Shown one piece after another: positions 1,922 to 35,637 of a DNA stretch of 47,896 bases; the first letter of the stretch is position 1; each line of letters begins with the position of its first letter. Origin of the DNA: a virus (lineage: Duplodnaviria > Caudoviricetes). The position numbers were made by a program, and so were the translations under genes. The notes below the pieces were generated by a model that saw only the letters and a program-made list of their open reading frames with translations, ran no database searches and was not told the DNA's origin. The DNA is taken from the IMG/VR virus record IMGVR_UViG_3300030332_001503, positions 1-47,896 of that record; one strand, written 5' to 3'.

Positions 1922-2187
1922 GAAGAGCCCCGCCCACCTGTAAACAGGTGAAAGCGGCGCTCAAGTCTCTGGGATTCGAGAAAGTAAAACCTCGAAAGGG
2001 TACTTCACATGAAAAGTTTCGCCATCCGGAGTTTCGGAAAGAAAAGCGAAACGTCACCGTTGACTGCCCAAAAGCGCCGTTTCGACCTGAACTTATAATC
2101 TCCATGGCGAGACAGGCAGGTCTCAAGAAGAATGAATTCTGGGATTTGTGTCTTGGCCGAATAAAGCCTGAAGACATACACGACTAG
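1918..2187 (+). CDS. hicA: HicA family mRNA interferase toxin
   Basis: Basic 89-aa protein with ALKSLGFEKV...KGTSHEKF...VTV...IISMARQAGL, the HicA dsRBD-like signature including the catalytic His. Confidence 0.85.
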   Translation: MRRAPPTCKQVKAALKSLGFEKVKPRKGTSHEKFRHPEFRKEKRNVTVDCPKAPFRPELIISMARQAGLKKNEFWDLCLGRIKPEDIHD

Positions 2188-2209
2188 CCCGCCCAGCGCG
2201 GGCTTTTTT
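2186..2209 (+). terminator. Intrinsic terminator after hicBA
   Basis: AGCCCGC-ccagc-GCGGGCT followed by TTTTT. Confidence 0.85.
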
Positions 2210-3168
2210 GTGTCCAGTCCCGGCAGCTAGTCAGCCCAGACCCACTTCTATTGCCAACCGGGAATTAACCCCGATACCCATTGCCCAGGCATGCCGTTTC
2301 GGGACCTCTGTACCCCCAAAAAGAACAGACAGACTTACCTCCTCATTGAATAGCTTCTGTCAGAAGCGCGGCAAATCATCCTGCAGAGAATGGCTACTAG
2401 CACTGACGCACCGCAAAGTTGCGCCATCTAATACCCCCTCGACACCGTTTTTGCGGTTAGCCTCTACTCACACCCATTGGGCAATCCTCCATATCGAGAG
2501 AATCCTGCCAGGTGAAGGAAGAAGGGCCTAGGTATGGACGAGCGAAAGTCGCCGAGACGACAGGGCGAGCATGCTTACGCCAACGGTAACAACGAATCCA
2601 ACGAGTATGAGAGGGGATACTTTCAAGCCCAGCGCGGGATCCGAACCCTCCCGCCCGAACTACGGGGCGCCCAGTAAAAAAGCGAGGGCCTCGGGGCAAT
2701 CCCGCGTGCACCAGCCGACTTACCAAAAGCGCCCGAGCCCTCTCCCGCAGCGCAACGGTACAAGAAGCGCCGCGACTCTGACCGATACTTACCCGAACAC
2801 TCGCGCACAACACCTATAATCTATCTCCTACACGTTCCGTCCATCATCTCCTACAGACACGCGACTGCGCTCTGCCCCACCCTGCGCTGACTGGCGAGTA
2901 CTCCCGGCCGCCGGCAACAAGCAGCCAGAGCGCGTGAACGTGATTCAATACTGGTGGATGACCGTCGGGCGACCATACAGTGACAAAAGGGTGTGTGTCG
3001 TGGTCTATCCGGGAAAGCCAACGGCAGCTTGGCAGTGAGCTTCGTACGGGGCCAACTGGGCACAAACGCCGTTCTAGAGCGGCGGCTCTACCTCTTAAAC
3101 GCCAGCCTAATGCTGCTGAAGTTGGCTGGGTATCGATTGCTGAAGGCTGGAGGAGCAGGAGAAGACAG

Positions 3169-3648
3169 ATGAAAGACGCTACGCTAAATGATGTTGAGGG
3201 GTATGGAGAGCTATCTTTCTCCTTCAGTGGTCAAGTCAGCACCTCTGCTGGATGGTTCCAACCGAAGAAAGCTGAAGATCTAGACAAATTCGATCCGTTC
3301 AGCGAGGCGACATTTTACGGCTGGATTGAAAAAAACCACATAACAGAGGCCATTCCTGTTCAAGTTATGGCCGTCGACCCAAGTAGCCAAACGGTGAGGA
3401 TAGCACCGGCCACACATCGATGGCCCAAATGGATCGCAGAGGTTCAGCACGAGAAAGAAGGCAACCGCACGATTGAATTCCAGTTTCCATGCGAGCCTTC
3501 GATAGAACAGGCGTGCGGCATGCTACAGCAGCATCTGGTTCCCAAAGGCGCCTTATTGCCCTCCGTTAAACGCAGCGACGGGGAACCATGCAGGGTACGG
3601 GTGGAAGCTGCAGGCTGGAGCGTTACAAGTATTCGATCTGCCATCTAG
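3169..3648 (+). CDS. Hypothetical protein
   Basis: ATG preceded by AGGAG; 159 aa of globular-looking sequence. Confidence 0.6.
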   Translation: MKDATLNDVEGYGELSFSFSGQVSTSAGWFQPKKAEDLDKFDPFSEATFYGWIEKNHITEAIPVQVMAVDPSSQTVRIAPATHRWPKWIAEVQHEKEGNRTIEFQFPCEPSIEQACGMLQQHLVPKGALLPSVKRSDGEPCRVRVEAAGWSVTSIRSAI

Positions 3649-3782: not shown

Positions 3783-4007
3783 ATGTCGAATGTTAACGAG
3801 TACCATAGCGTCAGCCAGCAGCTAGTCTATGCCGCGACAAATAAAAACAAACAAGATAAACGGGCAGCAGCGTTGGCACTGGCCTGCGGCTTGGTGGAGA
3901 GTGCAGTTAACAGCAACAAAGAGTTTGAGTTGCACGCTGGTTTCATTCGCGACTTGGCAGTGGAGATCGAAGCCTTCGCCGATGGTGTAGTCGGGGACGA
4001 CGGATAA
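3783..4007 (+). CDS. Hypothetical protein
   Basis: 74 aa with AGGGG SD. Confidence 0.55.
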   Translation: MSNVNEYHSVSQQLVYAATNKNKQDKRAAALALACGLVESAVNSNKEFELHAGFIRDLAVEIEAFADGVVGDDG

Positions 4008-22549: not shown

Positions 22550-23563
22550 TTACAGCGTCAGCCCCTCGCGGGCCGCCAGTTGATCGAGCGTCAGCACCCG
22601 GCCGGCGTCATCGGTAAACTGGTTGATCTTGACCTTGCCGGAGCGGAACAGCGCGGCGCGGCGCGGCCCCAGCACGTCATCCTGGAATTCCTTGCTTTGC
22701 CGTCGGAGAAAGCCGCCATAGGTGAGCTGGTTGTCCACCGGCCCATCCATGCTGGCGCGCTCACCCAGCCCCCCGAGGCGATACTCCTCTTTCACTTCCG
22801 GCACCCGGATGCTGCGGCACCGATAGTGCAGCGGCGGGCGCGGCCCCTGACCCAGCGGGTGCAGGGTGCGGTCCAGGCCGGCGCATGTGATGGTGGTGTG
22901 GCTGTCCAGGGTGGCCATGAAGCGCTCACCCTCGAGAATGTCCGCGTTCGCCCGGTACACCTCATCGCGGGCCGTGGCGCCGATGTGGTTGGTGGCCGTG
23001 CGGATCACCGCTTCGGCCTGCTGCCGGGAGCGCGTAGTGACCAGCCGGGATACCTCCCGGGCCATCTGATCCGTGGTCTTGCTTTCCAGGACGCCCGCTT
23101 GGACAACCCGCATGCTGTCGCGGCCGACGCCCTGGGCGAAATCGTCAAAGGCTTGGCGGATGGTGAGACGCTTTTGGGTTTTGCCGCTCAGCAGCGTCAT
23201 CTTGCTGCGCGTGGTGATCGCCCGGATTTGCTCAGGGGTGAAGCCCTGCCGAATCTCTACCGTGGCGCCAGACGCCAGCAGCTTGGCCGCGAATCCGGCT
23301 TCCTGCTCGGCGAAATCCTCAAGCTCCAAGGCGCCCTGAATGCCGGTCGTGGCGTGGACGATGATCTCGCGCAGGTCGCGTTCCAGGGCCACCATCCGCC
23401 CTGCCTGAAATTCTGTGGCGCTAGCGGCGGCGATCCTGGCCCGCAAGTCCCGGGCAAGCTGTCGCAGAATCGGCAGCGCTCGCTTAACCTGGCCGCCGCC
23501 AAACTGCTGGATGTAGATCTGGTGCCGGATCAGGGCCTCAAGGAGCTTGCCGTGTGAGGTCAA
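22550..23563 (-). CDS. Minor head protein (SPP1 gp7 / Mu F family)
   Basis: ATLDSHTT..C...D...PPLHYRCRS motif. Confidence 0.85.
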   Translation of the reverse strand: MTSHGKLLEALIRHQIYIQQFGGGQVKRALPILRQLARDLRARIAAASATEFQAGRMVALERDLREIIVHATTGIQGALELEDFAEQEAGFAAKLLASGATVEIRQGFTPEQIRAITTRSKMTLLSGKTQKRLTIRQAFDDFAQGVGRDSMRVVQAGVLESKTTDQMAREVSRLVTTRSRQQAEAVIRTATNHIGATARDEVYRANADILEGERFMATLDSHTTITCAGLDRTLHPLGQGPRPPLHYRCRSIRVPEVKEEYRLGGLGERASMDGPVDNQLTYGGFLRRQSKEFQDDVLGPRRAALFRSGKVKINQFTDDAGRVLTLDQLAAREGLTL

Positions 23564-24924
23564 AGCTCAAGGCCCCCGGTCTGGACCTCCGCGTCGATCT
23601 CTTCATCGGTGCGGTCGGGGTCAATGCCGCCGGTCTTGCGGCGCCAGGCCCGGTAATCCGCCTTGGCGATCAGGCCCCGATCCACTTCCTGGATGCGCGC
23701 CATGACCATTTGCGGGTCGGCGCCCTGCTCGTAGAACTCCTGATTCAGCCGGAACTTGATGTCGTCGAACACATCCGCGCTGGTCATGAACAAAGCCGCC
23801 CATTCCAGGCAGTTCTCCAGACCGTCGCTCACGTTGTCCGCCAGAGTGGAGAGGTTGGCGTTCTCGGCGCCCGTCCGTGCCCTCACGGCCTCTTCCCGCT
23901 CATTGCCACCGCGCTGCTCGATGAGCTTGGCGCCGATGGCGAGCATCTGGGCCTCTTTCTGCTCCATCAGCTTGAGGGGCAGATTCCGCTCCTCAGCCTG
24001 GACCAGCTCGACCTTGCCGCCCTTCGTCTGGATGCCGCGCCGCGCCCCGACGGTCACCCCGTTGGGGTTGAGATCTTTCCATTCCTGGGTGCTGGTTTCG
24101 CCCACATCCACATGGAACATCGGCTGGCCAACGATGAACGACGCCTCTTCCAGGTCCGCGCTGTTGCGGTAATGGCCGATATTCACGTCCGCGATGTCGA
24201 GCAGCAGCGGATTGTCGGGGTGTTCGTCGTTGTTGCCGGCGCCGATGAACTGGAACGGGATGAACGGCCACCGCTCACCGTTCGCCATGCGTGGCTCAGA
24301 GCGGGACACCTCTTCGTTGTGCCGGAAGACGCGCTGAACGTAGTAACCCTGATCATCCAGGCTCAGGACGCGGTACTGCTTCTCCCGGTTGACCTGGAAC
24401 TCATCGACCCGCACATCGTAGTGCTCGAGCAGAACCACCAAGGCCAACTGCTCGCCGTCGCGGCGCCAGTTGGTGATGGTGGGCCAGGGGTAGGCGCGGA
24501 GCGTTGCCTGCAGGCCTTGAGCTTGCTCCTGGGTCAGCCCGTCCTCGGCCTCCGGATAGTCCACCAGGACGCCATGGATGCCGTTTATCGCTGTGTCCGA
24601 GACCGCGCCACGGGCGAACTGCGTCAGACTCATGCCTGATCCGTCGGCGTCGTCGCGCATGTACTCAATAACGGACGGCAGCTCGGCCTCCGGCTTCTTG
24701 CGGAACACCGCGCCCAGCATGCCGTCATGGGTTCGCTTGGTAACGCCCAGCCACAGGGCCCCCATCTTGTAGCCCGCATACCGATCCGGGTCGCTTGGAT
24801 CAGGGTTGCGCAGGTACACAGTGCCCCGGCCCTTGATGGCGTCAGAGCCCTCGACCGCATCCCGGACCCGTCGCGCCTTCTTCTCATGGCGCTCGTAGTC
24901 AGGGTGGAGCGTTTCAACGGGCAT
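23560..24924 (-). CDS. Portal protein
   Basis: 454 aa right after TerL; PLLDIADVNIGHYRNSAD motif. Confidence 0.88.
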   Translation of the reverse strand: MPVETLHPDYERHEKKARRVRDAVEGSDAIKGRGTVYLRNPDPSDPDRYAGYKMGALWLGVTKRTHDGMLGAVFRKKPEAELPSVIEYMRDDADGSGMSLTQFARGAVSDTAINGIHGVLVDYPEAEDGLTQEQAQGLQATLRAYPWPTITNWRRDGEQLALVVLLEHYDVRVDEFQVNREKQYRVLSLDDQGYYVQRVFRHNEEVSRSEPRMANGERWPFIPFQFIGAGNNDEHPDNPLLLDIADVNIGHYRNSADLEEASFIVGQPMFHVDVGETSTQEWKDLNPNGVTVGARRGIQTKGGKVELVQAEERNLPLKLMEQKEAQMLAIGAKLIEQRGGNEREEAVRARTGAENANLSTLADNVSDGLENCLEWAALFMTSADVFDDIKFRLNQEFYEQGADPQMVMARIQEVDRGLIAKADYRAWRRKTGGIDPDRTDEEIDAEVQTGGLEL

Positions 24925-24928
24925 TCTG

Positions 24929-27085
24929 TTACCTCATGAACCTAATGGGGCCGACGCTGGCCGGCTTGATCACCGGGTACTCGTAATGGATGAAGTAGCC
25001 GCCGGCGTCGCAGTTAGATACAACCGGAGACTCATCCGAAAGCCGGAAGCATCCATAGCTAGGTACTGTCAGGCAATAAACGCTTTGTTCGCCTAGCGGG
25101 GAAACACTGATGACAGTTTTTACGGGCACTGTATTTGTTTGCACCGAACTCGCTGCCGCACTTTCCGCATGTTCGAGTTTCGTTGTCAATTCCGCTCTGC
25201 CTTCTTGCGTGAGCTTTGCACGCCTTTGAGCAGTACCTGTTTGAGCTGCCCTTAGTAGAAATTGGCGCGTCAAACTCAATGCCGCAGCAGCTGCATATAG
25301 CGCTCTCTGTGGCGCGTAGAGCGTTTTTGGTTTTTTCGTATTGCCGTCTATGCCATTCAGCACCTTCTTCGGACGAATGCCATCTGCTCGCAAGGTGCCT
25401 GTATTCTGAGGCCATTTGCGCCATTCGCTCGCGGCATTCAGGAGCTGAGCTGTGAAGCGACACATGCTCAGACCCTGGAAGGCATTCCAGATTTTCGATT
25501 TGATTGTTTGCGCGATTTTCGTCCGCGTGATGGATATGGAAGCCTTCGGGTATTTCGCCAAAGTAATGGCTCCAAACAACGCGGTGTAAACGCCTTTCGC
25601 CTTGCCTACCAGACGCTTGATAGTAGTTGCCGCAAATGTAGAATCGGCACCCGTCAAAGTCTTGTCGGGTATCGCTGACAACACGCACTCTTGGCCCATT
25701 AAGTCTTTCGCTTGCACCCATTTTCCAGTCCTCGTAAGGAATTTGTGGTCATGCGTGCATTTTATCACGTAACCATCAGCAAAGGTGATCCTTACGGTGT
25801 TTTTATGCCCAGTTTTCCCGGCTAACTGATAGGGCACGAACCCGCCATATGGCCCTAGCACTTCGCCTGATTCTGGGATTTCATCGAACCTGAAGTCTCC
25901 CATGCGCGTGGTAACGATTGTGTCGCCAGAAAAACACGCATGGTCGAGGCCCTGCTTCTTGTCCGGTTCGCCGTGCTGGTTATAGGCCTGCTGCTCCAGG
26001 CACTTCACATACCCGGGGCACCGGTCGACGTTGACCCGGTAGTCGCCCTGGAAGGCGGCGTTCATCGCGTTGATCCGGTCCTTAACCGGCGGGTTCTGTT
26101 TCGGGGCGTGGATCGTGAAGCCCGCCTCCCGCAGGATGGCCAGGTCGGTCTTGCTGGCGTCCACGCTGCGCCGGCCACCGCCGGAGGCATCCGGGTACAC
26201 ATGGATGGCATGACCTGGGTAACGGTCCTTGATGAGCCGCACCATGTCCGGCGTGTCGTAGCCGTTGCCGATTTCGCCGACCGCTACCGGGTGGCCGTTG
26301 CGCTTCACATGGACGACCGCCGACATCTGGCCGACGTTGAAGTCCATGCCGATGAACAGCGGCTCGCCCGGCTCTTCCGTTTCGTGCGTGTTGCAGCGCT
26401 TCCGGTCGAACTGGATGTACACCGTGCCAGTCGTCAGGTTGACGAACTCGCCCTCGATGTAGGCATCCAGCAGGTGCGATGGGTAGATGTCGCGCAGGCT
26501 GTCGATGTAGCCGTCCGGCAGGTGCGGATTGCTGTACGACGGCGCCCGGATGATCTCATAGCCCGGCGGGCGCTTTTCGTGCCACGTCTCGTAGACGAAG
26601 CGGAAGCCCTCCGGGGTAGTGGCCACCCCAACGGTGTTGGGCGAGCCGTCCGCTTTCTTCTGGCGGTTACGGGACAGTACCCGGCGCCAGACTTCGGCGG
26701 CGTCGTCCCGTTTCAGCGTATCCAGCTCATCCACATCCGAATCGCCGACCTCAAAGCCGATGATCCGCTGGGGCGTGTCCATGCTCCGGAAGATGATCCG
26801 GCCGTAGCCGTCGATCTCCAGGACGTTGTGCGGGTGTTTCGTGAGCCGGTACGGCACCCGTAGGTCTGACAGCAGCCCCTCGAAGCGCGGCCAGGCGATC
26901 ATGCGGATCAGGTCGTAGGTCGGCTCGTAGAACGCCCGGTCTGACTCCGGGTGGGCCAGCTTGCCCAGTAGGGAGCGGACGATCAGCGCCTCGGTCTTGC
27001 CGGCCCCGAAGCCGGCGACAATGGCCGGGTATCGCGCCTCGCTGAATATGAACTGGTCCTGTGGGACCGTCGGGTTAATTTCCAC
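24929..27085 (-). CDS. terL: Terminase large subunit precursor containing an intein (718 aa; about 410 aa after splicing)
   Basis: GTG start at 27085; Walker A AGFGAGKT, Walker B VDE, ATTPEG, nuclease IGMDFN, and a DHA|CDA motif split by the insertion. Confidence 0.92.
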   Translation of the reverse strand: MEINPTVPQDQFIFSEARYPAIVAGFGAGKTEALIVRSLLGKLAHPESDRAFYEPTYDLIRMIAWPRFEGLLSDLRVPYRLTKHPHNVLEIDGYGRIIFRSMDTPQRIIGFEVGDSDVDELDTLKRDDAAEVWRRVLSRNRQKKADGSPNTVGVATTPEGFRFVYETWHEKRPPGYEIIRAPSYSNPHLPDGYIDSLRDIYPSHLLDAYIEGEFVNLTTGTVYIQFDRKRCNTHETEEPGEPLFIGMDFNVGQMSAVVHVKRNGHPVAVGEIGNGYDTPDMVRLIKDRYPGHAIHVYPDASGGGRRSVDASKTDLAILREAGFTIHAPKQNPPVKDRINAMNAAFQGDYRVNVDRCPGYVKCLEQQAYNQHGEPDKKQGLDHACFSGDTIVTTRMGDFRFDEIPESGEVLGPYGGFVPYQLAGKTGHKNTVRITFADGYVIKCTHDHKFLTRTGKWVQAKDLMGQECVLSAIPDKTLTGADSTFAATTIKRLVGKAKGVYTALFGAITLAKYPKASISITRTKIAQTIKSKIWNAFQGLSMCRFTAQLLNAASEWRKWPQNTGTLRADGIRPKKVLNGIDGNTKKPKTLYAPQRALYAAAAALSLTRQFLLRAAQTGTAQRRAKLTQEGRAELTTKLEHAESAAASSVQTNTVPVKTVISVSPLGEQSVYCLTVPSYGCFRLSDESPVVSNCDAGGYFIHYEYPVIKPASVGPIRFMR
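25013..25936 (-). mobile_element. Intein (308 aa, Hint domain) in the TerL nuclease domain
   Basis: Starts CFSGDT (block A), CTHDHKFLT (block B TxxH), VYCLTV (block F), ends VVSN followed by Cys+1; lower GC than the flanks. Confidence 0.92.
25059..25721 (-). CDS. HNH homing endonuclease with C-terminal Cys-rich zinc fingers, nested out of frame in the intein
   Basis: LHRVVW...IPEGFHIHHADENRANNQIENLECL HNH motif; CSCCG, YCSKAC, CGKCG and CHQC; SD GAGGA 7 nt before the ATG. Confidence 0.88.
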   Translation of the reverse strand: MGASERLNGPRVRVVSDTRQDFDGCRFYICGNYYQASGRQGERRLHRVVWSHYFGEIPEGFHIHHADENRANNQIENLECLPGSEHVSLHSSAPECRERMAQMASEYRHLASRWHSSEEGAEWHRRQYEKTKNALRATESAICSCCGIEFDAPISTKGSSNRYCSKACKAHARRQSGIDNETRTCGKCGSEFGANKYSARKNCHQCFPARRTKRLLPDST

Positions 27086-27605
27086 CGGGGCGATTGACCA
27101 CGACGGTGACGCCCTCCGGCGGCAGAGCAATCTGGTCCTTGAACGCCTGAACGTCGATGTGCTTGCCGATCAGCTCCAGCCGCTTCACGCGGTCGGACAG
27201 CTTGACCTTCACCACGACGCCGCAGGGCTCTTTCTCGCCATCGATGTATTCGTACTGCTGCTCAACGTCGATACCGGCCACCAAGCCCTTGCGCCAGATC
27301 TCCGGCCACTGGTGAATCGGCTTCAGCCCACCGTCCTCGTTGTACAGGTCGGCAAGGTCTGCATCCGCCTCAGCAGCCAAGCGATTGAGCAGCCAGTCCG
27401 CGTCCACCTTGGTGCGCTCAGACCGGGAAGCCTTGGCCTGGGCGATAGCTTCGGCTATCTGGGGTTTTCTAAGGTTCTCGTTCCCCACGGATGCTGCCGT
27501 TTTGGCGCTGTATCCCGCACGGATGGCCGCCTGTGTGGCGTTCAGGTCGCGCAGGTACTCTTCGACGAATGCCTGTTGCTTGTCGGTCAGCTTGGGATTC
27601 AGCAC
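27075..27605 (-). CDS. terS: Terminase small subunit
   Basis: LTDKQQAFVEEYLRDLNATQAAIRAGYSAKTA signature. Confidence 0.92.
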   Translation of the reverse strand: MLNPKLTDKQQAFVEEYLRDLNATQAAIRAGYSAKTAASVGNENLRKPQIAEAIAQAKASRSERTKVDADWLLNRLAAEADADLADLYNEDGGLKPIHQWPEIWRKGLVAGIDVEQQYEYIDGEKEPCGVVVKVKLSDRVKRLELIGKHIDVQAFKDQIALPPEGVTVVVNRPGGN

Positions 27606-30810: not shown

Positions 30811-31178
30811 CGGTGCCACCCCTCAATCGCGGCCAGCACCTCCGCCGAGCACGGCAGCTCGCCCTTCTGGCGCCGGTAGTGCGCCACCAGGCCGGCAAAG
30901 ATCAGTTTCTCCATTCCCCGCCGGCCGATGTCCCGGGGTGAGCCGTAATACTCGGTGACGAACTGGGCGGTGTTTTTGTCGATCGACGCCTCATGCCGGT
31001 GGTGGCGTGGGCACAGCGGAATGGTGAAGTCCTGACCGATCCACACCTTGCTGTGCTTGCCGGTGGACCCGACGCAGTGATGAATCTCCGCCGGCATGCC
31101 GCAACAGGCGCAGCCCTGGTCGCGGAGCCATTGGTGCCACCGGCGCTGGGCTGCTGTGGGTGCTTTGCCGCCTTGCAT
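30807..31178 (-). CDS. Ref/DUF968-like HNH-fold nin protein
   Basis: CACCG..AEIHH...TIPLCPRHH. Confidence 0.75.
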   Translation of the reverse strand: MQGGKAPTAAQRRWHQWLRDQGCACCGMPAEIHHCVGSTGKHSKVWIGQDFTIPLCPRHHRHEASIDKNTAQFVTEYYGSPRDIGRRGMEKLIFAGLVAHYRRQKGELPCSAEVLAAIEGWHR

Positions 31179-32260
31179 TAGGACACCTCCATCACGGCTT
31201 GGATGAACGCCGTGGCCGCCTCGGCATTGATCGCATTGCCATAACCGCGCAGTCGTCCCACTCGGGCGGGAGCGCCATCAACCAGCGGGGATGTGCCGGG
31301 TTCAACTGGCCGGAGCTTTCCATCCCGGCAGAGGAGCCAGTCAGCGTCTCGCCAGAAGCCGTTAGTCGGAGCGGGCCCAGTTCCCGCGCTTGCACCGGCA
31401 GGCCGTTGCGAATGTCCGGTGCCACTTGTCCGCGCTTCTCCGCGTCGTTGGCCCGCGGCGTCGCCCAACCGCACATAGCCGCCATCGACTTCAAGGCCAT
31501 CCCGCCCTGTCGTCCAGGGGGCACCTTTGCTCCGGTCCCATCGTTCGCTCTTGGGGTGGGCCATCCGGCTAGCAGCACCTTCCCGTCCAGATTTTCCAGG
31601 CCTCTCACTGTCTCCGGTTGTCCTTTGTGGTTGCTGGCTCCTGGTGTCGGCCATCCCCCCAGGGTCGCCACCGCCGACAACGGCTTCCCCCTCGCATGCG
31701 CCCATCGCTTCTCGTTGAATTCGTCGCTCGCCGACTCGCTCCGGTAGTCCCGCGCTGCTGGCGTTGGCCACCCAATACGCACGGTCTCGGATGTGCGGGG
31801 CACCGACGCCCGCAGACGGGAACGGGACACACCCGAAGGCGTAACCCAGGGCTTCCACGTCAGCTTGTACAAGGTCGAACCACGGCCCTGTAGATTTGCT
31901 CGCAACCTGCTCTCCAAGGACGACTGGAGGTGCGCACTGCTGGATGAGCCAGTGGAAGGCAGGCCATAGGTGCCGCTCGTCATCAAACCCGCCTCTTTTG
32001 CCTGCCGAGCTGAAAGGCTGGCATGGGCAGGAGCCGGTCCAGACTGGTGTATCGTCGGCAACTCCGGCGCGGCGAAGGGCATAGCTCCACACACCGATTC
32101 CGGCGAAGAAGTGGCACTGGGTGTATCCCACAAGGTCATCTGGTCGAACATCCTCAATGCTCCTTTCGTCAACGTCGCCAGGCGCAATCAGGCCGGCCGC
32201 TATCAGCTCGCGCAGCCACTGGGCGGCGAACGGGTCGATTTCGTTGTAGTAGGCGGTCAC
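31178..32260 (-). CDS. DNA cytosine-C5 methyltransferase, catalytic chain (360 aa)
   Basis: FFAGIG (I), GSCPCQPFS (IV), GEQV (VI), PHIRDRAYW (VIII), LRGYGNAI (X); no motif IX in this frame; GTGA overlap with ninB. Confidence 0.88.
31192..32151 (-). CDS. Nested +1-frame protein: putative second methyltransferase subunit (WPTP repeats plus motif IX), 319 aa
   Basis: AAGGAG 8 nt before ATG 32151; four GW(P/A)TPxA repeats; [18 protein letters not shown] resembles motif IX. Confidence 0.75.
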
Positions 32261-32676
32261 GCGCACTCCCCCATTTCCCGCATGATCTGCTGGTATTCGC
32301 TGTCCTCGGGCTTGGGCAGCAGGCACCCGTGGTCAACGCACCAGTTGTCGATCTGCGTCATGTAGTCTGTCATTTCGCCCTTATCCAATTCGGTGGTGCT
32401 GCGCAGCTTGGTGATTTCGGTCTGGCCCACGGTCTTGGTTTCGTGGCCCAGGAATTTGTGGCGCATCAGGTCGTGGGCGTCGTCCTTGGTGAGCCGGTGG
32501 CCGCGCTCGGTGAAGTGGCTGGCCATGACGGTGAGCCACTGCCAGTACATGGCGTTTTGCGAAAGCGTGCGGCTGGCCTTTGTGATCTTGACCCGCACCG
32601 GGAAATCCCGGCGCAGCAACTCGCCCACCAAGTCGCCAAGCTGTTCTTTGGCGAACAGGGTTATCGTGTCAGCCAT
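32257..32676 (-). CDS. ninB: NinB/Orf family recombination protein
   Basis: RTLSQNAMYW...STTELDKGEM..Y...I motif. Confidence 0.8.
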   Translation of the reverse strand: MADTITLFAKEQLGDLVGELLRRDFPVRVKITKASRTLSQNAMYWQWLTVMASHFTERGHRLTKDDAHDLMRHKFLGHETKTVGQTEITKLRSTTELDKGEMTDYMTQIDNWCVDHGCLLPKPEDSEYQQIMREMGECA

Positions 32677-35046: not shown

Positions 35047-35637
35047 TTAAGCTGATTGCGCCTCAAGCTGGGCCAGCCGCGCCCGAAGCTCCGCCATTTC
35101 CTGTTCCGGGCTGACTTGCCGCCGGTCGCCATCGGAAAAGAATCCGCCGCCAATCACGCGTGCCGCCCCTTGGTACGCGGCGGATGCCGACTCTTTGCTG
35201 TCAAACAGCCCCAAGAAGTACGTTCTCCCGTGATTCTTAATCGCTGCCCGGTATTGCGTTGTGCCGCCCGAGATTACGGCACTGACACCCTTAAATTTCG
35301 TGGTGTTGTCGGATCGCATTGCGCCGTTAAGGCTGTTCTGCCATTGCTCGCAGCCCCTGAGATTCCAGGCTCTGTTGTCAGACGGGTTGCCGTTGATGTG
35401 GTCAACGTAACCGCGCGGACCCTCCCCGTTTATCAGCGCAAATATGATGCGGTGAGCAAGGTATTTGCGGCCCCGATACACAACCTGCCGATAACCTCTA
35501 GAGCTGCCCCTTGTGTCTGCTCTTTGCCCGATCTGGCGCTGAGAAACCTTCACCTTCCAGCGCAGGGCTCCTGTTGAGGGGCAGTAGTCCACCAACTCAC
35601 GCCACATTGCTGCATCTATCGGTGTTGCGCTGCTCAT
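35047..35637 (-). CDS. HNH endonuclease with AP2-like domain
   Basis: YLAHRII...VDHINGNPSDNRAWNLR...N; KGV...YRAAI...YFLGLFDS.E.A..AY. Confidence 0.88.
   Translation of the reverse strand: MSSATPIDAAMWRELVDYCPSTGALRWKVKVSQRQIGQRADTRGSSRGYRQVVYRGRKYLAHRIIFALINGEGPRGYVDHINGNPSDNRAWNLRGCEQWQNSLNGAMRSDNTTKFKGVSAVISGGTTQYRAAIKNHGRTYFLGLFDSKESASAAYQGAARVIGGGFFSDGDRRQVSPEQEMAELRARLAQLEAQSA

Follow-up and report, generated by a model that had tools for sequence, protein, structure and literature searches.

A putative intein overprinted by a zinc-finger HNH_3 nuclease gene in the large terminase gene of a temperate tailed phage

Inteins whose nuclease is encoded out of frame have been described in two preprints. 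Gosselin et al. (2025; 10.1101/2025.01.02.630785) report in their main text inteins whose nuclease is either antisense (LAGLIDADG or VSR-like) or in frame 3 of the same strand (EndoVII-like), many such inteins being located in the large terminase gene terL, and Phillips, DeSimone and Gogarten (2026; 10.64898/2026.09.14.751524) describe a cyanobacterial dnaX intein with a LAGLIDADG homing endonuclease in the +2 frame, a layout they term a rarity; both texts derive such out-of-frame nucleases from the invasion of a mini-intein. Here we analyse a stretch of 47,896 nucleotides (nt) from a virus of the Caudoviricetes (Duplodnaviria; IMG/VR record IMGVR_UViG_3300030332_001503, positions 1 to 47,896), hereafter the window, whose terL gene holds a putative intein overprinted by an HNH_3 nuclease gene.

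The window resembles the frame-3 inteins of Gosselin et al. in its contiguous intein, its unstructured in-frame middle, its same-strand frame-3 nuclease and its terL host, and, like the non-canonical inteins of both preprints, it combines a contiguous intein with an intact nuclease open reading frame (ORF) in another frame, the nuclease frame being under purifying selection and the intein frame relaxed. It differs in that its nuclease is of the HNH_3 type with zinc fingers, no EndoVII family (IPR004211) match being found among the Pfam matches at E<=0.1 for this ORF, which gave HNH_3 (the sequences of the subtype were not compared directly); in that the HNH inteins of the main text of Gosselin et al. 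are in frame; in that its overlap extends into the splicing domain, which theirs typically does not; and in its site, the C-terminal nuclease motif. With the dnaX intein it shares a putative Shine-Dalgarno (SD) sequence, a low nuclease-frame and high intein-frame ratio of nonsynonymous to synonymous substitution rates (dN/dS), and the coexistence of empty and filled alleles, whereas that intein has a LAGLIDADG nuclease and a bacterial dnaX host, and the word promoter is absent from the accessible text of the preprint. Three further systems are related. The fractured genes of Dassa et al. (2009; PMC2677866) carry split inteins with GIY-YIG or Vsr-like nucleases, fracturing by HNH being only predicted in the text available; the window's intein is contiguous, but 15 of 113 listed relatives have the same HNH between terL intein halves (our family and metagenome sets are samples, made of the matches listed, and their figures are not totals). 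The ShiLan domain, as presented by Arsenault et al. (2025; PMC11855218), is an HNH hidden in the other frame of a stop-free phage-gene insert, situated in a methylase and without a splicing domain, whereas the window has a Hint domain. Lastly, mycobacteriophage TerL inteins a-g, for which splicing and the cutting of empty alleles were shown, all occupy sites in the ATPase domain according to the sections consulted (Novikova et al., 2016; PMC5050341), while the window's site is in the nuclease domain.

The kind of layout is thus already known, on the accessible text of these sources, for EndoVII-like, VSR-like and LAGLIDADG nucleases, and the suggestion of an initial annotation of the window that the architecture might be unreported does not stand. 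For the HNH_3/zinc-finger family, the nuclease-motif site, the three-state series and the co-conversion of the +1 residue discussed below, no description was found in the open-access and bioRxiv literature, a search that excluded supplements, InBase and subscription papers; the supplementary tables of Gosselin et al. may list members of the HNH family such as that of the Tetrasphaera phage TJE1.

We propose that the locus is a selfish terL element, composed of an intein predicted to splice itself out and an overprinted HNH gene, which probably uses a promoter and ribosome-binding site of its own and probably drives the copying of the element into empty terL genes. Judged from sequence analysis, we consider this reading highly probable; the element is real, under selection and probably mobile.

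Two reading frames in one intein

The features on which this proposal is built are as follows (aa, amino acids):

24929..27085, minus strand: terL precursor ORF, 718 aa from a GTG start, with a predicted spliced product of 410 aa (Terminase_6N and 6C, phrog_2)
25937..27085, minus strand: N-extein, 383 aa, which comprises the ATPase and the greater part of the RNase H-like nuclease domain and closes with D-H-A
25013..25936, minus strand: predicted class 1 intein, 308 aa, with C1, T61/H64, block F and S307-N308 (profiles, motifs, structure model)
24929..25012, minus strand: C-extein, 27 aa, beginning with C-D-A
25127..25672, minus strand: intein-frame filler, residues 89-270, stop-free, of low-confidence structure and non-conserved amino acids
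25059..25721, minus strand: HNH_3 nuclease (HNH_3, phrog_15471), 220 aa, with a helical linker and two Cys4 zinc fingers, in the -1 (= +2, 'frame 3') frame
25729..25733, minus strand: SD-like GAGGA, 7 nt ahead of the ATG, made of intein codons
25749..25751, minus strand: in-frame TGA that closes the HNH frame upstream, 9 sense codons ahead of the ATG
25759..25767, minus strand: TGATAAAAT, 37 nt ahead of the ATG, an extended -10 promoter element predicted from TAnnnT conservation
25937..25940, minus strand: element-linked upstream bases, comprising the third position of the His triplet and the codon for the -1 Ala (Phe in the closest empty alleles)
25010..25012, minus strand: +1 Cys codon, the predicted splicing nucleophile (Pro in the closest empty alleles)

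The terL gene is a single uninterrupted frame (27085..24929, minus strand), of which the intein takes up residues 384-691. The intein matches the Pfam family Intein_splicing with 42 bits (cut-off 35.8) as well as TIGR01445, and it carries the features of class 1, namely a Cys at position 1, T61-x-x-H64 in block B, a terminal Asn in S307-N308 and a +1 Cys, together with VYCLTV at 286-291; this bears out the initial annotation, which had recognised a 308-aa intein with these motifs that parts the nuclease motif as DHA|CDA. C1, H64 and N308 are invariant across 60 aligned inteins. In the structure model, the pLDDT score (predicted local distance difference test) is ~98 at residues 1-80 and 271-308 and 42-72 in between, and a Foldseek search with the model gave 33 PDB matches at E<=0.001, in line with a Hint fold, the best of which, those listed, are all inteins or intein-like. 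The element has a GC content of 0.51, the N-extein one of 0.65. Class 3 inteins are marked by the triplet Trp B12, Cys F4 and Thr G5; this class was ruled out, the corresponding residues being Phe66, Cys288 and Val306, with Cys1 present. As the motifs are intact and the gene is essential, we infer that the intein splices.

The insertion site was located through a relative (L052), since a solved-structure search with an empty TerL (L153) gave no match. The N-extein of L052 aligns to the nuclease domain of the SPP1 terminase, its last residue being the His of DKDNH. From the chain length, the His at the end of the N-extein would be H400 of SPP1 G2P, and the Asp matching D403 would be located in the C-extein; in SPP1 both bind metal and are required for nuclease activity, according to the part of the report available (PMC3592435). 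Because the intein parts the His of the nuclease motif from its last Asp, splicing would be required for packaging.

Between the folded ends of the intein, residues 89-270 consist of 16% Ala, 13% Thr and 16% Lys+Arg, and Pfam, TIGR and phrog searches found no profile match for an endonuclease domain in the intein frame, in agreement with their earlier description as Ala/Thr/Lys/Arg-rich filler; the window's intein hence lacks the canonical homing layout, in which blocks B and F enclose an in-frame endonuclease. The nuclease is found instead in the overlapping frame, where the 220-aa HNH and zinc-finger ORF noted initially matches HNH_3 (E 1.4e-16, 60.2 bits, cut-off 24.8) and phrog_15471 (E 1.8e-40). 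H64, H65, N73 and H86 of the HNH protein are invariant in 27 sequences, and all catalytic and zinc-binding positions that are invariant family-wide are intact in the window. Its structure model has a mean pLDDT of 89; the best PDB fold match, which concerns the nuclease part of a protein that in the window also has two Cys4 zinc fingers, is I-HmuI (1U3E; Foldseek E 0.014, probability 0.98), and a solved-structure search with the sequence gave weak matches only. Besides the filler, the gene overlaps the folded splicing-domain residues 72-88 and 271-293, and its TAG stop spans intein codons 292/293, within block F. A second frame as open as this arises by chance in 58-1088 of 10000 random synonymous recodings of a single copy, depending on codon usage, which is not very unlikely; it is therefore the family pattern, not the lone copy, that excludes chance.

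Selection on the two frames differs. Between the window and its closest intein-bearing relative, L001, the HNH frame has a dN/dS of 0.22, the intein frame over the overlap one of 0.73 and the N-extein one of 0.07, and pooled over 8 unsaturated nested pairs the ratio is 0.13 in the HNH frame, 1.56 in the intein frame and 1.44 in the non-coding third frame (14 of 28 pairs, with synonymous sites near saturation, were omitted). The HNH frame is under purifying selection. As the intein frame does not stand apart from the third frame, the filler is constrained solely to avoid stops, so that of the earlier proposal that selection holds both frames open the half concerning the nuclease stands, while for the filler (0.73, 1.56) it reduces to the avoidance of stops. 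The window and L001 are separated by 28 substitutions, including 15 at third positions of HNH codons, and L001 maintains both frames across them. When the window's HNH gene is recoded, 1.5-4.2 stops appear in the +1 frame versus 5-19 in the +2 frame, which accounts for the frame bias seen in the family: the -1 frame would be favoured because few synonymous choices suffice to hold stops out of the intein frame.

The signals expected of a separate gene are built from intein codons. The GAGGA-7 nt-ATG arrangement and the stop inside block F are both present as first described, and only the in-frame stop upstream had been misplaced, with 9 rather than 7 sense codons between the TGA (25751..25749) and the ATG. 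This ATG consists of the last base of a Lys codon and the first two of a conserved Trp codon, and in 7/7 close-clade clusters there is a GGAG/GAGG-type site, an A-ending codon ahead of the conserved Trp that creates the ATG, and a TAnnnT hexamer 38-43 nt upstream, created by an A-ending Ile/Val codon; these clusters are kin and hence not 7 independent events. Such A-ending Ile/Val codons make up 15/310 in close-clade exteins and 11/69 in non-overlapping intein parts, the latter count taking in only part of the N-terminal intein region. The best SD at HNH-frame starts has a median of -6.4 kcal/mol, versus -4.8 and -3.5 in the other two frames (p about 0.004), despite fewer candidate sites, and an extended -10 motif within 90 nt upstream occurs in 28/83 nested clusters, where 9.1 are expected and the maximum in 200 recodings is 15. 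Conservation of the SD, the ATG and the -10-like hexamer suggests independent expression of the HNH gene, in support of its initial reading as a gene apart, equipped with start signals of its own. A hairpin masking the SD was considered and rejected, the fold being nothing unusual (z -0.87). In seven SD-less relatives (L015, L026, L028, L029, L041, L065, L127), an extended -10 element lies 6-9 nt ahead of the start codon, pointing to HNH transcripts that are leaderless. Two contigs from RNA libraries of one study, X19 (25013-25769, 37 differences, no gaps) and X20 (25538-25727), overlap the HNH region; being assembled contigs from a library that may contain DNA, they are not counted as evidence of expression.

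The nuclease family and empty terL alleles

Searches with the HNH protein gave at least 147 sequences including the window, 135 of which, with a long match, form 113 clusters at 90% identity; the other 12 loci, with an HNH match under about 100 aa or E>1e-8, were dropped. In 85 of the 113 clusters the HNH gene lies inside a longer same-strand ORF, 73 times in the window's frame relation and 12 times in the other frame, and 82/84 of the host ORFs other than the window's have a Hint-type Pfam match at E<=0.01. The two without, L053 and L122, were omitted from the intein counts; their open frames, in which the HNH is likewise nested, may be degenerate inteins or ShiLan-like inserts. Among the 28 non-nested clusters, 15 have the HNH between intein halves (14 with both halves, one, at a contig edge, with the C half only), while 13 are intein-free, all of them directly adjoining terL or terS. 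All 97 inteins that could be delimited (83 contiguous, 14 split) start with Cys and end with Asn; the +1 residue is Cys in 89, Ser in 6 and Thr in 2, and the inteins occupy several registers around one D-H-x-x-D motif. Nested relatives reach down to about 31% identity, and nesting is the commonest state of the family. It is found in four GenBank phages, TJE1, Highwayman, phiCDHM19 and LS06-2018-MD07, where the locus is annotated as terL only.

In none of the 113 clusters is the HNH in frame with the intein, and the same holds for the 80 metagenome loci, which were not de-replicated and comprise 39 nested, 24 split or broken (some of which may be errors or pseudogenes) and 17 without Hint. No in-frame fused form was found among 342 longer candidates either, which is weak evidence.

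Several loci of the family and its surroundings depart from these states. In L119 and L283 the HNH frame is broken and the intein frame open, probably a decay towards a mini-intein; in L070, L103 and L133 the same terL has LAGLIDADG domains further upstream, apparently belonging to a second, canonical intein. The terL intein halves of Brochothrix phage BL3 (L147, about 1930-2610) are in two ORFs with only a zinc-finger HNH remnant between them, and the terL of phiCD119 (L148, about 1540-2600) is broken at several places where that of phiCDHM19 is contiguous. Gordonia phage Clown (L149, terL 2038-3177) has an ATPase-domain intein, named in the text of Gosselin et al., that hides a different out-of-frame protein in intein frame 2, in which the zinc fingers precede the HNH domain (HNH_3 E 3.9e-6). 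In Xanthomonas phage FoX3 (27397-28164, hit H76), a gene annotated as helicase or head morphogenesis weakly matches 84% of the TJE1 intein.

Empty alleles are frequent close to the window. The best 80 closest terL loci comprise 78 empty ones, many of them near-duplicates, L001 and one that is incomplete. The six nearest empty alleles, at 95-98% identity, have D-H-F-P-D-[AS] where the filled ones read D-H-A | C-D-A, and in all 78 the +1 residue is one other than Cys, Ser or Thr, so that the element must arrive with its own +1 Cys. Each of the two filled N-exteins is nearer to an empty allele than to the other, and their joint clade is rejected (approximately unbiased test, p 0.00047). From position 3790 onward, L001 has a different TerL tail and a different portal gene, both of which find matches among empty alleles, and judging by these matches a recombination boundary is located just after its intein.

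At least half of the words of 24900-26100 were found in 18 runs, nearly all with a marine label; the window may itself derive from one of three of these. In run X7 the intein shows 0 differences over 924 nt, while its flank has 21 over 442 nt; X4 has 23 differences, and the 21 that are listed all lie outside the intein, in X10, 2 of 26 listed differences lie inside it, and X14 holds filled pieces and empty joints together. The identity of the X7 intein within a diverged flank and the presence of both alleles in X14 point to recent homing.

Proposed mechanism and alternatives

In the mechanism we propose, ribosomes would read through the entire intein, and splicing by Cys1, His64, Asn308 and Cys+1 would rejoin D-H-A to C-D-A, restoring the H-x-x-D end that binds metal, which would make splicing essential. 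The message of the HNH gene would either start at the internal -10 element or be the terminase mRNA, and its translation would use the gene's own SD and ATG. The HNH protein would nick or cut an empty junction carried by a co-infecting phage or by a prophage; the likeness to I-HmuI, an intron-encoded enzyme that nicks DNA, hints at nicking. Repair would then copy the element with a short tract, turning Phe-Pro into Ala and Cys and so supplying the +1 nucleophile that empty alleles lack.

A number of observations weigh against this account. The likeness to I-HmuI is weak (Foldseek E 0.014, template modelling score 0.27; phmmer E 0.39), and many of the Hint matches in relatives fall under the Pfam cut-off. 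The penultimate residue is Ser307, not His, although a penultimate His is usual but not universal in class 1 inteins; 23/97 relatives end in SN and 68/97 in HN. On the expression side, the window's SD is moderate (-5.9 kcal/mol), no -35 box was seen upstream of the HNH start, a stock sigma-70 scan reported no promoter on the coding strand, and 55/83 nested clusters lack an extended -10 motif under the pattern used. Regarding mobility, the extein tree is mostly unresolved, and ordinary recombination among mosaic phages of a population could likewise place identical inteins in differing flanks.

Two alternatives fare best, both of which we consider unlikely. One is that the HNH is made not from its own start but as a fusion, by -1 ribosomal frameshifting from the terminase-intein frame, which would suit its position on the same strand in the -1 frame, the moderate SD and the 26 family members without an SD at their best start. 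However, the in-frame TGA leaves just 9 codons ahead of the ATG, the positions of ATG, SD and -10 hexamer are conserved throughout the close clade (7/7 clusters), and an extended -10 element lies 3-12 nt ahead of the start in 7/26 SD-less versus 0/74 SD-bearing members, which fits leaderless transcripts. The other, about equally improbable, holds the element to be a passive or decaying passenger with an inactive HNH, spread by general recombination; phage genomes are mosaic, L001 differs in portal and C-terminal tail, and the HNH frame is interrupted within the intact inteins of L119 and L283, but the family-invariant catalytic and zinc-binding positions are intact in the window, HNH dN/dS versus L001 is 0.22, and differences in X7 and the listed ones in X4 stop at the borders of the intein.

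Still less probable is a domesticated HNH that helps the terminase in packaging, like gp74 of HK97 (a precedent known to us from part of PMC10448857): among listed relatives the gene is always in or beside terL, yet 78 of the 79 complete closest terL loci, including the six at 95-98% identity, have no insert, so that close relatives do not keep it at the packaging locus as they would a gp74-type gene (only the terL locus was examined). An ordinary in-frame HNH intein disguised by two compensating indels or assembly errors, an explanation that the initial annotation had itself raised, can be rejected, because the HNH ORF overlaps folded intein blocks at both ends, L001 holds both frames over its 28 substitutions, contigs from four other studies span the element without gaps or indels, and no listed relative, whether among the family clusters or the metagenome loci, has the HNH in frame.

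Direction of evolution and significance

In a midpoint-rooted FastTree of the 113 HNH sequences, whose root is insecure and whose supports are local values, the four states require 15 changes, as opposed to 37.8 in shuffles. Free HNH genes arise several times within nested groups (e.g., L087 with L083, support 96), and the main second-frame group is placed within a split group (support 85-94). In split loci, the frame of the C half is +1 with respect to that of the HNH at 9/14 family and 20/22 metagenome loci, as if inherited from the nested form, since ordinary stop-start overlaps would give +2. These observations favour a long-lived nested state that feeds the other states over the fleeting intermediate suggested by the initial annotation, which had also assumed, like both preprints, the invasion of a mini-intein; an intermediate fits poorly with a state that is the commonest and spans relatives down to about 31% identity. 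Repeated invasion is a possible alternative to a nested ancestor. Nuclease distance correlates with extein distance (Spearman 0.36) and splicing-domain distance (0.26) over 93 loci, and as the latter correlation is merely modest, a fixed ancient pairing is not shown.

We thus advance only tentatively, as an idea that may well fail, that the overprinted intein is the long-lived ancestral form of a large mobile family directed at terminases, a source of split and free forms rather than a stage on the way to them, which colonises sites without a nucleophile through the co-converted +1 Cys. Were this so, stops in the filler would yield a split terL, free HNH genes would escape from it, and some splits would re-fuse in the other frame.

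The window as a whole is a temperate tailed phage with integrase, repressor, capsid and terminase genes, in which two genes flank terL:

27075..27605, minus strand: terS, small terminase (Pfam Terminase_2, E 7e-41)
23560..24924, minus strand: portal gene directly downstream (DUF4055; role from position)

Elsewhere, the replication region has a second, free-standing HNH_3 gene of 196 aa (35047-35637, minus strand), and a C5 DNA methylase ORF (31178-32326, minus strand, Pfam DNA_methylase) overlaps a same-strand 331-aa ORF in another frame (31192-32187) for which no Pfam match was found. The overlap is reminiscent of methylases whose second subunit is encoded in an alternative frame.

Described as a rarity in the 2026 preprint, inteins whose nuclease lies in a different frame are common in phage terminase genes, where annotation has overlooked them. 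With about 660 nt of dual coding and selection that can be followed per frame, the element is a good model of overlapping genes, and its split relatives are candidates for new trans-splicing inteins. Empty alleles without a +1 nucleophile allow a clean test of whether inteins import it, an idea that is speculative in the accessible text of PMC11855218. As a single nuclease family occurs overprinted, between split halves and free, a single tree can serve to test the sequence of steps that published models of intein evolution assume, and the nested-ancestor reading, if true, would reverse for this family the published direction, in which a free nuclease invades an intein.

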